32,505 nt of DNA. Source: Candidatus Woesearchaeota archaeon. GTDB lineage: Archaea; Nanobdellota; Nanobdellia; Woesearchaeales; GW2011-AR9. The stretch lies in NCBI GenBank assembly GCA_018221085.1, contig JAAOXZ010000033.1, positions 1 through 32,505 of the forward strand, given 5' to 3'. The notes below the pieces were generated by a model, which had not been told where the DNA came from, ran no database searches, and was given only the letters and a program-made list of their open reading frames with translations. A program made the position numbers and the translations under genes. Below are positions 3,830 to 21,402 of the stretch, one piece after another; the stretch's first letter is position 1, and every line of letters begins with the position of its first letter.

Positions 3830-4660
3830 TCAAACCAACACTTTCTTTTTTCCTTTGTTAAAATTAAGATGATTCTCTTTAGAAATCACTTTTCTGCCGG
3901 TTTCTTTCTCCAGTTCTAATCTGGCATTTCTTGCAATTGATCCGCCTTTTTTTGAATCCTGCTCTAATTGATGAAACTTCTTGGAACCATGAGTTTGAGT
4001 GATTTCTGTGGTTGCTTTTTCTCCAAGCATAGTGAAGATAAGTTCTAAATCGTTCATGTGATCTCTCAAGTTGGCTTTTGATTGTTTTGGAATGTTTTTG
4101 AAATCTTTATGCTGCATAATCCCCATTCCGAATGTTGCTTTGCTTATTTCATTAGTTAAAATTGCAAAGTCTCTTTTTTCTTTCACTCCTCGTCTTTGCC
4201 ACTCTTCTGTTAACTCTTGTCTTATAGCAATACCTCTTAGTCTTTTATCAATCCAATCTTTAGGATAACCTTTCAATTCATAATATTCTTTCACCCTATC
4301 TTGGGCCAGTTCTGGATTTTCTATTTCTTCGATTCTTTCCTGTCCTAGTTGAGATAACCATTGTTTGAATGGTTCAGCTCTTTTAGAAGGAATTGATTGG
4401 ATTATTCTAAAAATACCTTTAGTGTTGGTGCAATTCATTCGCTGTTTCCCGCCTTTTGTCTCAACCTCAAGGGTATGTACAATTTGTACCCACCCTTTGG
4501 AAAGCCACAAATCTCTGCTTTTCAATCTTTGAATGTATTGCTTTGGATCCTCGCTTTCAGTGATAGCAAATACCACATCTTCTATAACATAATACCAGTC
4601 ATTGTTGTACCATGTCCTCCGGATACGTTTATCTTCAAATACGATTAATTTATTTGTCAT
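3830..4660 (-). CDS. BRO-N domain (antirepressor-like) protein
   Basis: FEDKRIRRTW..DWYYVIEDVV, GGKQRM.C, FRIIQSIPSKRAEPFKQWL, YELKGYPKDWI, NLRDHMNDLELIFTMLGE. Confidence 0.9.
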   Translation of the reverse strand: MTNKLIVFEDKRIRRTWYNNDWYYVIEDVVFAITESEDPKQYIQRLKSRDLWLSKGWVQIVHTLEVETKGGKQRMNCTNTKGIFRIIQSIPSKRAEPFKQWLSQLGQERIEEIENPELAQDRVKEYYELKGYPKDWIDKRLRGIAIRQELTEEWQRRGVKEKRDFAILTNEISKATFGMGIMQHKDFKNIPKQSKANLRDHMNDLELIFTMLGEKATTEITQTHGSKKFHQLEQDSKKGGSIARNARLELEKETGRKVISKENHLNFNKGKKKVLV

Positions 4661-4725: not shown

Positions 4726-5244
4726 TCAAACCAACACCTTTTTCTCTCCCGCATATAATCCCATATTATCCAGTTTCTCAAATTGGTCTTCGTTTAAGAT
4801 TACATAGGACAAATCCAGTCCTTTCTCTTTGATTTTCTCACAAACCTCTTTAACTTTCAAATTATCAATCTGATCTCCAATTAAAATCACATTGGCTTGA
4901 TTATTTTCCATTTTTCCATGCAATAATGCTTTTTTCAATCCGTTCATCCCACTAACATATTCCACAAACACATCCAGCAAACTTTCTTCTTTGAACCAGC
5001 CATCTAAAAAGCTACTTTTTTCATTTCGTACCAAACTAAAGAATTTCATCATCCCTACTTCTTTAACCCTAATCAATCCCGTTCCCATTAATTCTTGCAA
5101 TATCCTAAAAACAGACGAAACTGACACTTCGCTTTTTTTGGCCAACTCTCGCAAGTACATTTCATCTTTAGAAAAATACAGAGTCTTTAATACAGAAATC
5201 TTCTTGTGATCTAACAATCCCCTCAACACCTCTTTCTCTACCAT
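4726..5244 (-). CDS. Winged-HTH protein with degenerate nucleotidyltransferase-like C-terminal domain
   Basis: MYLRELAKKSEVSVSSVFRILQELMGTGLI HTH plus wing; C-terminal LLHG...ANVILIG lacks the catalytic DxD. Confidence 0.75.
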   Translation of the reverse strand: MVEKEVLRGLLDHKKISVLKTLYFSKDEMYLRELAKKSEVSVSSVFRILQELMGTGLIRVKEVGMMKFFSLVRNEKSSFLDGWFKEESLLDVFVEYVSGMNGLKKALLHGKMENNQANVILIGDQIDNLKVKEVCEKIKEKGLDLSYVILNEDQFEKLDNMGLYAGEKKVLV

Positions 5245-5995: not shown

Positions 5996-6075
5996 ATCGC
6001 GGGAAGTATATTCTGCAATATATATTTTAAAAGTGAGAAATATTTAAATATAAAATATGCTTTTCTAAAAATTAT

Positions 6076-6199
6076 AAATTAGTTTGTTCAGTTAAGGGTT
6101 AGATTCACAAGACTTAGTTCGTCTTAGATAAATTAGTTCTCGTAGTTAGTAATATATTAGTTCGGGTTAAATTAGTTCAATGAGGGATAAACGAACTAG
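6076..6199 (+). repeat. Array of TTAGTTC short repeats upstream of ftsZ
   Basis: TTAGTTC at 6114, 6133, 6157, 6172; degenerate AAATTAGTTT at 6076; inverted GAACTAG at 6193-6199. Confidence 0.7.
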
Positions 6200-6275
6200 C
6201 TATATAAATCTTTATATGCTATAGTATATAAAACTCAACAAAAAATAAAAAACAAAAAACGAGAGGTGGTGTAAA

Positions 6276-7337
6276 ATGGATTTGCTTATTGAAAAAGCGA
6301 TGGAGAACCAAGAGGAAGTATATGACCAAGTGTGTCAAGCTAACATAAAAATTGTTGGCGTGGGTGGAGCTGGAAATAATATGGTGGGCTGGCTCTATAA
6401 AAAAGGAATTAAAGGTGCAGAGATTATTGCTACCAATACGGACCAACAACATTTAACCATTACTGGTGCGGATAGAAAATTCCTTATCGGTAAAGACCTT
6501 ACCCGAGGTTTAGGTTGTGGTGGTTTTCCTAACCGAGGAGCAGAAGCTGCTCAAGAAAACTTAACGGAAATTAAAGACACTCTGAAATCTTCAGACATGG
6601 TTTTTATTTGTGCTGGAATGGGAGGAGGAACTGGAACTGGTGCTGCCCCTGTTGTCGCTCAAGTAGCTAAAGACGCTGGTGCTATAGTTATTGGTACTGT
6701 TACTATGCCCTTTAGCATTGAACGAGCCAGAGTTGATAAAGCTGAATTTGGTCTACAACAATTAAGACAAGTTTCTGATACAGTTATTGTTATTGATAAC
6801 AATCGACTAGTTCAAATTGCTGGAAACTTGCCGGTTCAACAAGCTTTTGCTGTAGCTAATGAATTAATTGCTACTATGATCAAAGGAATCGTTGAAACCA
6901 TTGCTGTACCTAGCTTAGTAAACTTAGACTATGCTGATGTTAAAGCCATTATGACTAACGGCGGAGTAGCTGCTATTGGTGTGGGTAGTTCCGATACTAA
7001 TAGTAGAGTAGATGAAGCTGCTAAAGGTGCTTTGAGTAATCCTTTACTAGATATCAACTACGAAGGTGCTACTGGAGCCTTAATTCATGTTACTGGCGGA
7101 CCAGATATGACTTTAGATGAAATCTCTAGAGTTGGAGAATTAGTAACTGCATCTTTGGATGCTGAAGCTAACGTTATCTGGGGAGCTCGGATTGACAACG
7201 ACATGAAAGGTAAAATGGTTGTTATGACAATCATCACCGGTGTTAACTCTCCTTGGATCTTGGGAAAAAGTAGTGGAAAACAACCCAGTACTGAAGCCCA
7301 AACCTTAAGCAAGGAATTAGGTATCGAGTTAATCTAG
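6276..7337 (+). CDS. ftsZ: Cell division protein FtsZ (FtsZ2-like)
   Basis: GVGGAGNN, GMGGGTGTG tubulin signature, ERAR, DNNRL..NLP, NLDYAD, ANVIWGARI; SD GAGGTGG. Confidence 0.97.
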   Translation: MDLLIEKAMENQEEVYDQVCQANIKIVGVGGAGNNMVGWLYKKGIKGAEIIATNTDQQHLTITGADRKFLIGKDLTRGLGCGGFPNRGAEAAQENLTEIKDTLKSSDMVFICAGMGGGTGTGAAPVVAQVAKDAGAIVIGTVTMPFSIERARVDKAEFGLQQLRQVSDTVIVIDNNRLVQIAGNLPVQQAFAVANELIATMIKGIVETIAVPSLVNLDYADVKAIMTNGGVAAIGVGSSDTNSRVDEAAKGALSNPLLDINYEGATGALIHVTGGPDMTLDEISRVGELVTASLDAEANVIWGARIDNDMKGKMVVMTIITGVNSPWILGKSSGKQPSTEAQTLSKELGIELI

Positions 7338-7355
7338 GGAAAAAGAGGCGATAGA

Positions 7356-7393
7356 AAAAAGGGCTTCTGCCCTTTTTATTTTTTATTTTTTTT
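7356..7393 (+). terminator. Hairpin plus U-tract terminator after ftsZ
   Basis: AAAAAGGGC-TTCT-GCCCTTTTT followed by long T runs. Confidence 0.7.
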
Positions 7394-7434
7394 CACAATC
7401 ATCCACACATCAAATAAATCACACAAATCACATT

Positions 7435-7500
7435 TAAAGAATCTTGCCTTGGTCTAAATTCTTTACACCACCCCCAAAAGGCAAGATTTTTTATTTTTTT
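7435..7500 (+). ncRNA. Candidate hairpin RNA with loop antisense to the ftsZ RBS
   Basis: Stem AATCTTGCCTT (7440-7450)/AAGGCAAGATT (7478-7488); loop TTTACACCACC (7462-7472) is the reverse complement of 6265-6275; T-tract follows. Confidence 0.45.
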
Positions 7501-7586
7501 CTTTCAAAACATTTATTAAGAAGTTATATCGATTGCTTAATCAAAAGAGTTTTTAATGTTTTAAAACTAAATACGAGGTTAATAAA

Positions 7587-7946
7587 ATGTCAAATGAACA
7601 AGAAGGACTTTCTTTGGATGAAGTCTTAAAATTAAAAGATAAAATAAAAATAACCGATTGGCAAGAAACTGCCGGGTTATACCACACCAAATGTGGTGAG
7701 GCCACAGTTTATTTAAGAGAAGACACCGTTTTTTCAAGAGAAGAAACTAGTGACCCTCAATTGATGGGCCATGTCAGTGTAGATTACAACGGATTAAAAT
7801 TGGCTGAATACACTGGTGACCAGGATCCCAGAGTGAATGAATGGTATTTATCTGTTAAGGAAGGCATAGATGCTATCCATGATAAAGAAAGAAAAGAAGC
7901 TCTCCATGGAGCCAGAGAGACAATCAAGAATTTCTTAAAAGAATAA
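7587..7946 (+). CDS. Hypothetical protein
   Basis: 119 aa ORF with SD GAGGT. Confidence 0.7.
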   Translation: MSNEQEGLSLDEVLKLKDKIKITDWQETAGLYHTKCGEATVYLREDTVFSREETSDPQLMGHVSVDYNGLKLAEYTGDQDPRVNEWYLSVKEGIDAIHDKERKEALHGARETIKNFLKE

Positions 7947-21120: not shown

Positions 21121-21402
21121 GAGAGGGCCAGCTAGGCTGGGGGGTTAGCTCTCCCTTGTTACCATCAACGAGCTTTATGGTGGAGCCGAAGCCCAAGGAA
21201 GGGATAATTTTGTTTTGCTGGTCTTAAGCGTCTTTGCTGACGGTTTGTCCTTTGGGATGGACTTGTTGGGAACCAGGTCAGGCCGGGAACGGAGCAGCCT
21301 TAACTTTCAATCTTCATGTTCAAAGGGTCGCAAACTCGAGAAGCGTTTAAGGTTAAGCTGGTGAGGCTTTATTGTTTCGACTGCGGGCGTGCCCCTAAAC
21401 TC
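21121..21402 (+). ncRNA. ffs: Archaeal SRP (7S) RNA
   Basis: Alu-like 5' part GCTAGGCTGGGGGGTT...GCCGAAGCCC; helix 8 GGTCAGGCCG-GGAA-CGGAGCAGCC; 3' end GGGCGTGCCC; GC-rich; upstream GAAACC-TTTAAAA promoter. Ends approximate. Confidence 0.9.

Follow-up and report, generated by a model that had tools for sequence, protein, structure and literature searches.

What is the hairpin that follows an ftsZ gene in the archaeal contig JAAOXZ010000033.1, and could it act on the translation of that same gene? The contig, 32,505 nt long and analyzed here in full (the window), belongs to assembly GCA_018221085.1 of a Candidatus Woesearchaeota archaeon (0.85 Mb, 35% G+C, 92 contigs), and the relatives of its FtsZ protein in public records are titled Woesearchaeota or Nanoarchaeota. 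A reading made from the letters of the window without database searches (the sequence-only reading) had proposed that the loop of the hairpin pairs with the ribosome-binding site (RBS) of ftsZ. Control of archaeal FtsZ-based division is largely unknown, and genetic manipulation of DPANN archaea is not yet possible; a conserved gene-linked RNA with a testable base-pairing partner would be a handle on division control without cultivation. We found that the hairpin is, very probably, a real and conserved element that is new as a family. As to what it does, the best reading is that of an anti-Shine-Dalgarno (anti-SD) element of the ftsZ2 transcript that would compete with the ribosome, a proposal that we consider about evenly balanced.

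In the window, the outer stem of the element has 16 bp (11 perfect, AATCTTGCCTT / AAGGCAAGATT) with a single G-U pair at 7439-7489, and its fold (-20.8 kcal/mol, z = -6.2) was not equaled by any of 200 shuffles. Within the loop, TTTACACCACC (7462-7472) is the exact reverse complement of GGTGGTGTAAA (6265-6275), i.e., the 3' part of the ftsZ SD plus the spacer, and AAATTC (7456-7461) pairs with GGATTT (6278-6283) through one G-U. RNAduplex, applied to the loop and the ftsZ start region, gave 11+7 bp with a 2-nt bulge and -21.0 kcal/mol. Every coordinate that the sequence-only reading had given for the stem, the loop, the 11+6-bp match to the RBS, the T-tract and the minus-strand ATG-TGA was reproduced; on that strand nothing but ATG-TGA lies beyond the element, and no open reading frame (ORF) of ≥40 aa starts there. 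A covariance model of the element (R1, see below) scored 61.1 bits on the plus strand versus 26.5 on the minus strand. No family of Rfam 15 reached its gathering score over the element, and none of the 27 matches returned by a permissive scan of 7300-7620 came anywhere near it; over the element, the lowest E was 0.012. No published account of such an element was found in the literature on archaeal ftsZ and noncoding RNA; a bacterial “ftsZ-DE” motif could not be located there either, and no Rfam model matched. Among the sequencing runs listed for the stretch none was of RNA, and the three that were compared are contigs, probably of DNA. One DNA run represents a near-identical strain: its spacer 7401-7433 differs by about 9 changes, its 7456-7493 is unaltered, and its change G7439A converts the stem G-U into A-U. 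Within this genome alone the loop-RBS match is suggestive only, the 11-mer of the match occurring 5 times in 0.85 Mb, and the strong support comes from the relatives.

Relatives were collected as best protein matches, not as a random sample, and yielded 124 distinct FtsZ2-type loci, 123 of them assessable and one located at a contig edge; the scan for relatives had reported at least 535 FtsZ2-type loci. The element was present in at least 111 of the 123 (105 by a helix-finding rule and 6 by covariance models); the remainder comprised 5 variant-like loci and 7 without the element. In a first set of 30 orthologous loci, a hairpin of the same design lay just 3' of the ftsZ stop codon in 27 of the 29 that could be assessed. 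We distinguish group A, the window's own family, group B, most other families of the order Woesearchaeales, and group U, nine loci of one lineage with the element upstream of the gene. The group-A design consists of an outer stem, (A)ATCTTGCC(C) / (G)GGCAAGAT(T), followed by TTCT, an inner stem CTTACA / TGTAAG, an apical loop CCACCCC(C) of 7 to 8 nt, and a T-tract, the inner stem having been lost from the copy in the window. RNAalifold recovered 12 outer-stem pairs in group A, 5 of them with compensatory changes. R1, built from this alignment, found one strong match per genome, always beside the FtsZ2-type gene and on its strand, in 22 of 24 family genomes; the blanks are one genome (79% complete) that has no orthologue and one from which the element is truly absent. 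Group B has TGCCTTCAyy / rrTGAAGGCA as its stem and aACCACCCCCAAC or aTCACCCCCAAC as its loop. Over 56 group-B sequences, 94.8% of the cells were paired and 8 of 11 pairs showed double changes, a result reached by none of 500 shuffles, with slid controls at ≤50.5%. The percentage is biased upward because the hairpins had been chosen by the helix-finding rule, a bias that leaves the compensatory changes at homologous columns unaffected.

The sequences of loop and stem are conserved over roughly 60 families, and the flanking intergenic DNA is scrambled. The C-run falls within the predicted hairpin loop, exposed as a pairing seed would be, in 33/37 loci of group A, 58/59 of group B, and 8/9 of group U. 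When the group-B model (R2) was run on 150 further genomes of the class, strong matches appeared in Woesearchaeales only (12 of the 16 genomes from outside the window's family), all 12 just downstream of ftsZ, and six weak matches in other orders were not near ftsZ. This blank outside the order is not evidence of absence, because elements with a different stem exist in at least one, probably two, other orders. The idea of a genuine RNA element tied to ftsZ is thus borne out by its occurrence in relatives, the covariation of its stem, and its strand asymmetry.

The loop cores resemble the 3' tail of the 16S rRNA, which reads GGATCACCTCCTT in two complete genomes of the order (these provided the tail, the window's own 16S being cut at a contig end). 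In the loops, the CACCUCC of the tail appears with its central U changed, as (A/U)CACCCCC in group B and as CACCACC in group A. The ftsZ SD contains GGGG in 51/51 group-B loci (GGGGG in 34, with T after the G-run in 35) and GGTGG in 35/37 of group A. In the window's genome, GGTGGTG is found in 1 of 779 start regions, i.e., that of ftsZ alone, and canonical SDs prevail (GGAGG in 64, GAGGT in 74, GAGGTG in 24). Orthologous genes served as controls, flanking ORFs of the 4-kb loci having been discarded as too noisy. With one genome per family of the order, ftsZ has GGGG in 25/26 and a canonical SD (GGAGG or GAGGT) in 1/26, versus 1/29 and 18/29, respectively, for the proteasome alpha gene. Within the window's family, the ftsZ stretch GAGGTGGTGTAAA, spacer included, is nearly fixed among genera that share 80-88% of FtsZ residues; of the control genes, proteasome alpha retains GAGGTG with a variable spacer and the SD of MetK varies.

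Loop and SD have changed in a matched manner. GGGGGU goes with ACCCCC in group B and GGUGGUGU with ACACCACC in group A; in one locus inside group A (L009), GGGGUGUA goes with UACACCCC, the same triplet being lost on both sides. In another order of the class, the SD GGGGAGUG stands opposite the loop CACUCCCC in 6/9 genomes and GGGGGU opposite ACCCCC in two. There, too, a hairpin of this design (z = -5.6) comes after the FtsZ2-type gene: its outer stem is followed by UUUCU and by an inner stem, AAUCA / UGAUU, with CUCCCCC as the apical loop, and a U-tract comes last. The picture is mixed in a third order, which has a larger conserved structure after ftsZ2, with a 10-nt match, AAAGAGGGUU / AACCCUCUUU, in one genome and canonical SDs opposite CCUCC loops in two. 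In the other sets, the complementarity between loop and RBS, for which the sequence-only reading had proposed a check in related genomes, is kept and changes in step across lineages. As a separate observation on the third order, the structured region of L411, L414, and L415 extends ca. 60-260 nt after ftsZ and includes AGCGAGCGCA...GAGGCAG and a CCTTCC-TC(TT)CCCCC-AGGAAGG hairpin, with more structure beyond.

Pairing energies were calculated for start regions with their own loop and with the 16S tail. For ftsZ, the values were -15.8 versus -12.2 kcal/mol in group A (loop better in 33/37) and -12.7 versus -11.1 kcal/mol in group B (43/51). For proteasome alpha across the order they were -6.9 versus -9.9 kcal/mol (loop better in 4/22), and for MetK in the family -7.6 versus -8.8 kcal/mol (4/24). 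Competition between loop and ribosome is therefore predicted to favor the loop at ftsZ and the ribosome at ordinary genes. In group A, cognate loop-RBS pairs reached -17.5 versus -16.6 for noncognate ones (permutation p = 0.002, relatedness uncorrected).

The position of the element also varies. In group U, a related element, GGGCTCTCCActg-TTTCTTTCCCATAAACCACCCCCCAAACCCACA-...TGGAGAGCC, is located 25-105 nt upstream of the ftsZ start codon and on the ftsZ strand. The intergenic region is a divergent one, and in it the element follows a TATA box and a ATGCTAGTATACAAAA stretch. The same stretch follows the TATA box of the window's ftsZ (6201-6234). Since the promoter context is shared by both arrangements, the module appears to belong to the ftsZ transcript, in either untranslated region (UTR).

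Conservation, structure, strand, linkage to ftsZ2, and the matched changes of loop and SD are observations, on which the following model is built. The ftsZ2 transcription unit would include the hairpin as a structured RNA module, which would be transcribed with the 3' UTR in most lineages and with a long 5' leader in one. Its outer stem would present the apical loop, whose C-rich core may be described as an anti-SD (CACCUCC) with the central U replaced (CACCCCC or CACCACC), and the ftsZ2 SD would carry the matching replacement, GGGGGU or GGUGGUG in place of GGAGGU. Given both replacements, the loop is predicted to pair better than the ribosome with the ftsZ2 SD, and worse than the ribosome with ordinary SDs. 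By binding the ftsZ2 RBS it would compete with 30S binding, and this brake on FtsZ2 synthesis would scale with the output of ftsZ2 transcript. The contact might be made within one mRNA (5'-3') or between molecules, possibly after 3' processing, i.e., the action may be in cis or in trans. A stronger version of this model is that of a private SD/anti-SD pair in this DPANN class, in which an altered cis-encoded copy of the 16S tail recognizes only the altered ftsZ2 SD, plus the MCM SD in the window's family, and, in competition with the ribosome, gates the translation of division and possibly of replication proteins. We put it forward tentatively, as a possibility that is probably not correct.

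Several results weigh against pairing with ftsZ2 as the function of the element. Group U has the loop unchanged, yet its SD is the canonical GGAGG in 9/9 loci, and its own loop pairs less well than the 16S tail (-9.2 versus -11.3 kcal/mol, loop better in 2/9). The loop of L048 lacks CACCACC, yet its SD is GGTGGT, and the match of SD and loop is only partial in L401, from the other order with a hairpin after its FtsZ2-type gene. The matched changes amount to a handful of independent evolutionary events, and in group B cognate pairs were no better than noncognate ones (p = 0.85). C/U-rich loops and purine-rich SDs are complementary by composition, and 24 of 2000 loop shuffles paired with the ftsZ start region as well as the real loop, so that base composition accounts for much of the pairing energy. 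When intramolecular structure was included, the gain from cofolding was only -2.8 kcal/mol for the window. For three relatives, in which the inner stem buries TTACA of the complementary stretch, it was 0 to -0.9 kcal/mol, so that the apical loop of 7-8 nt would have to be where pairing begins. In the window's genome, a terminator-like hairpin (7356-7393) separates ftsZ from the element. Finally, ftsZ was only 4th of 779 crude start regions as a predicted partner of the loop in this genome, after MCM, an ABC ATPase, and a 103-aa protein, and in G055, a whole 774-kb genome, its own ftsZ was 22nd of 755. The core of the sequence-only reading, a loop that pairs with the RBS of its own ftsZ, stands as the best-supported mechanism, with an about equal chance of being right or wrong and with matched changes across lineages in its favor; its expectation that ftsZ would be the top target has failed.

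With regard to the intervening hairpin, on whose read-through the sequence-only reading made the production of the RNA depend, its sequence is not conserved in relatives, and an earlier hairpin before the element is present in only some of the 30 intergenic regions read (untallied). The element often starts within about 35 nt of the ftsZ stop codon, with a minimum of 6 nt and group medians of 34 nt (A) and 43 nt (B), and this closeness lends indirect support to a place in the ftsZ mRNA. A simple terminator scan flags the first hairpin (7356-7377) alone, because the loop of the element exceeds the rule of the scan.

Part of the conservation goes beyond what pairing would ask for. The flanks of the loop core are conserved as well (CCA/UCA before the C-run, AAC after it), more than a 5-6-bp SD match needs, and the basal stem is conserved in sequence, beyond mere pairing. 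Such constraints would be expected if the hairpin ended and stabilized the ftsZ2 mRNA and the C-rich loop were read by an RNA-binding protein (e.g., a KH-type poly(C) binder), with SD complementarity as a by-product of purine-rich SDs and pyrimidine-rich loops. The small cofolding gains and the unchanged loop of the nine group-U loci with a canonical SD are in keeping with this explanation, as is the frequent T-run (≥4 within 10 nt of the stem), found in 36/37 loci of group A (31/59 of group B and 2/9 of group U). However, it leaves unexplained why the SD of ftsZ2 should be deviant and match the loop (GGGG in 25/26 versus 1/29 in the control gene), and why SD and loop should have changed jointly in group A, L009, and another order; besides, the protein is hypothetical. 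We consider this explanation unlikely.

The ranking of targets raises another alternative, i.e., that the element is the source of a trans-acting small RNA (sRNA) with a wider regulon (e.g., replication and division genes), coexpressed with ftsZ2 only through its 3'-end location and having ftsZ2 as at most one target among several. MCM is the best-pairing start region of the window's genome, and within the family it has a G-run RBS, for which the loops are better partners than the 16S tail in 23/24 genomes. In other families, MCM is G-rich in only 3/20 genomes (GGGG; one genome per family, canonical SD in 1/20). In G055, the top matches of the loop cover 22 nt (1 mismatch) at the RBS of an extra Cdc6 paralogue and, without mismatch, 15 nt ahead of ThyX; an FtsZ1-type paralogue (confirmed by Pfam) ranks 4th and LonB 8th, 14-nt matches occur at two more sites, and GGGGTGGTTAAGAA is present at three further sites, all followed by an ATG. 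The four long complements are far beyond chance, but they are specific to G055. Pattern scans of two other genomes (G017 and G040) gave no excess over reversed-pattern controls (7 versus 3, including the element itself, and 17 versus 19), and Orc1/Cdc6 was rejected as a general target, most Orc1 genes having no SD and only the extra G055 paralogue matching. The regulon may thus be wider in some genomes, but this does not hold in general. An sRNA would also fit a stretch of 15 nt on contig C45 of the window's genome that matches the loop perfectly and precedes a 31-aa ORF; this ORF and a 43-aa one that adjoins a G055 match are unrelated to each other, and a CdrS-like common target was dropped. 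It should be noted that the category of “cell-cycle genes” was picked after the lists had been seen. Taken together, we judge a trans-acting sRNA of this kind quite improbable.

The control genes argue against the generic anti-SD sRNA that the sequence-only reading had offered as an alternative, the loop pairing worse than the 16S tail with canonical SDs, and its other alternative, an inverted relic of the ftsZ 5' region, fails to explain the order-wide conservation. A mere terminator hairpin or DNA-level inverted repeat with a chance likeness to the RBS, already disfavored, is very improbable: the element does have a G+C-rich stem followed by a U-tract at a gene end, its 11-mer is found elsewhere in the genome and 24/2000 shuffled loops reach the observed energy, but the loop core and basal stem, unconstrained in a terminator, are conserved over about 60 families amid scrambled flanks, model scores are strand-asymmetric, stem changes are compensatory, and a palindrome bound by a protein is unlikely because the spacer between the arms varies in length.

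Some observations concern the other predicted partners. The best partner of the loop in the window's genome is the MCM start region GGAGGGTGGTTT (C45, 5790-5811). The 15-nt perfect complement GGTGGTGTAAAGAAT (C45, 9216-9230) includes a copy of the 11-mer and lies 1.4 kb downstream of MCM, with a TATA-like box before it and the 31-aa ORF, which had no family match, after it. The G055 complements of 14-22 nt, near perfect, are located near 46.5 kb, 384.0 kb, 503.2 kb, and 608.4 kb of contig C1, at the extra Cdc6 paralogue, an unassigned site, the 43-aa ORF, and ThyX; the 43-aa ORF is weakly ribbon-helix-helix-like (E = 0.0037, below the cutoff). In six genomes (G018, G024, G049, G039, G051, and G033), the MCM matches are split within open frames of 1130-1339 aa, which suggests inteins in the MCM of several genomes.

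The features of the ftsZ locus are listed in Table 1. The gene order is nitroreductase, ftsZ, a 119-aa ORF, and prolyl-tRNA synthetase. Two FtsZ paralogues were found in 41/41 genomes searched. We regard that of the window as FtsZ2-like because it is less similar to FtsZ1 of M. jannaschii (324 bits) than the paralogue on contig C9 (420 bits); the label FtsZ2 used in the sequence-only reading is consistent with this comparison by score. No small ORF associated with ftsZ was found, the gene itself coding for a 353-aa FtsZ, so that the 5'-3' interaction of type I toxin mRNAs is not a close parallel. The 119-aa ORF (7587-7946, plus strand), between the element and the prolyl-tRNA synthetase gene, has no Pfam or NCBIfam match, and in several relatives the synthetase gene comes directly after the element without this insertion. 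One to 2 kb upstream of ftsZ, a protein with a Bro-N domain, frequent in viruses, adjoins a TrmB/MarR-type helix-turn-helix regulator (3830-4660 and 4726-5244, both on the minus strand). In the rest of the window, an archaeal signal recognition particle RNA (21125-21395) was the sole Rfam match above gathering score, and a tRNA/tmRNA scan found none.

Table 1. Coordinates of the ftsZ locus and of the downstream element in the window
Feature	Coordinates	Strand	Basis or remark
TATA-like box TATATAAA of the ftsZ promoter, then ATGCTATAGTATATAAAAC at 6216-6234	6201..6208	+	Read in sequence
ftsZ ribosome-binding region: SD GAGGTGGTG, spacer TAAA, ATG (6276), GGATTT	6261..6283	+	6265-6275 and 6278-6283 complementary to the downstream loop
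ftsZ, FtsZ2-like paralogue, 353 aa	6276..7337	+	Pfam Tubulin and FtsZ_C domains
Purine motif GGAAAAAGAGGC directly after the stop codon	7338..7349	+	Relatives carry GGGAAAAAGAGGT
First hairpin (AAAAAGGGC TTCT GCCCTTTTT) with T-tracts, terminator-like	7356..7393	+	Only terminator-like site flagged in 6000-7700
Conserved element, outer stem 7435-7450 / 7478-7493	7435..7493	+	Fold, covariance model R1, and stem covariation
Loop, 27 nt; pyrimidine stretch TTCTTT 7459-7464, C-rich core CACCACCCCC 7466-7475	7451..7477	+	Core resembles 16S 3' tail CACCTCC
T-tract after the element, archaeal-type termination signal	7487..7500	+	Read in sequence

Relatives share the promoter layout of the window, i.e., a TATA box, ca. 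10 nt, and then the ATGCTAGTATACAAAA stretch, and transcription would start in this area, leaving a leader of about 50 nt. Upstream of the TATA box, TTAGTTC / ATAAATTAGTT units are repeated in 6074-6180 (e.g., 6114-6134 and 6157-6177), and the equivalent position in other families and another order has two to three copies of TTTGGCGA(A) or TTGGCGCA. These repeats are likely binding sites of a putative transcription factor conserved together with the promoter. In many group-A leaders (e.g., L010, L011, L018, L019, and L023), the loop core CCACCC(C/T)C has a further complement, another G-rich box (GAGGGTGG or GGGGGGTG) located 20-70 nt ahead of the ATG. In the window, this box (ATGAGGGA, 6180-6187) stands upstream of the TATA box. 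A leader peptide or N-terminal extension at this box was rejected as inconsistent between loci. The purine motif after the stop codon matches the GGGAAAAAGAGGT regular expression in 15/102 loci, in about 13 of which (12-13) it stands 5' of the element, 20-95 nt away, in downstream and upstream arrangements alike. Carriers include L005, L011, L012, L033, L035, L084, L087, L088, L096, L097, and L103, usually with a variable hairpin after it, and a small ORF after the motif was rejected, again as inconsistent between loci.

If the anti-SD model were true, control by a 3' UTR anti-SD would extend from one staphylococcal gene to an order-wide archaeal system, which suggests a natural “orthogonal” SD/anti-SD pair. 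In the stronger, more doubtful form of a private pair, archaeal division by FtsZ would have a cell-cycle control circuit made of RNA only, and no such circuit would have been described for it before. The element also provides a new candidate RNA family for annotating these archaeal genomes.

How does it compare with known systems? In E. coli, the sRNA DicF occludes the ftsZ RBS. In Klebsiella, excerpts of the description of DinR present it as an sRNA processed from an mRNA 3' end that occupies the ftsZ RBS (PMC10907235). The likeness is that ftsZ translation is repressed at the RBS by an RNA; DinR and DicF are encoded by other genes (dinI and a prophage, respectively) and are Hfq dependent, whereas the element described here lies in the transcription unit of ftsZ itself and would give self-feedback. 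No sequence or structural relationship of the element to either sRNA was found, and neither was an Rfam match. The C-rich-loop sRNAs of Firmicutes (RsaE and RNAIII) have UCCC motifs and use a C-run exposed in a loop as a seed against SDs (PMC3868564, in excerpt). Their targets, as described there, are the ordinary G-rich SDs of many genes, whereas the ftsZ2-element loop is mismatched (A opposite C) to the canonical GGAGG of its host and matched to a gene-specific variant. The regulators of archaeal FtsZ division that we found in the literature are proteins, e.g., CdrS, a ribbon-helix-helix transcription regulator encoded upstream of ftsZ2 in Euryarchaeota (PMC7439475 and PMC8406309, in excerpt). 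CdrS is likewise a dedicated regulator genetically linked to ftsZ2, but it is a protein that acts on transcription and the element is an RNA; no cdrS-like gene flanks the window's ftsZ, whose upstream neighbor is the nitroreductase gene. The closest parallel is the icaR mRNA of S. aureus, in which the 3' UTR motif UCCCCUG blocks ribosome loading by pairing with the mRNA's own G-run SD, UAGGGGG, with action in cis or in trans possible (PMC3868564, in excerpt). As in icaR, the C-rich motif of the ftsZ2 element is complementary to the SD of its own gene, and a 3' UTR C-run is proposed to meet a G-run SD of one mRNA. According to these excerpts, the bacterial icaR motif is found 260 nt beyond the stop codon, and RNase III cleavage takes part in the mechanism. 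The ftsZ2 element is a dedicated conserved hairpin of DPANN archaea at a median of about 35-45 nt from the stop, order-wide and with matched SD changes, on a cell division gene, and is described here from sequence. By analogy with icaR, it may be a new archaeal variant of an already known mode of control, a mechanism for which we see about as much reason to believe as to doubt.

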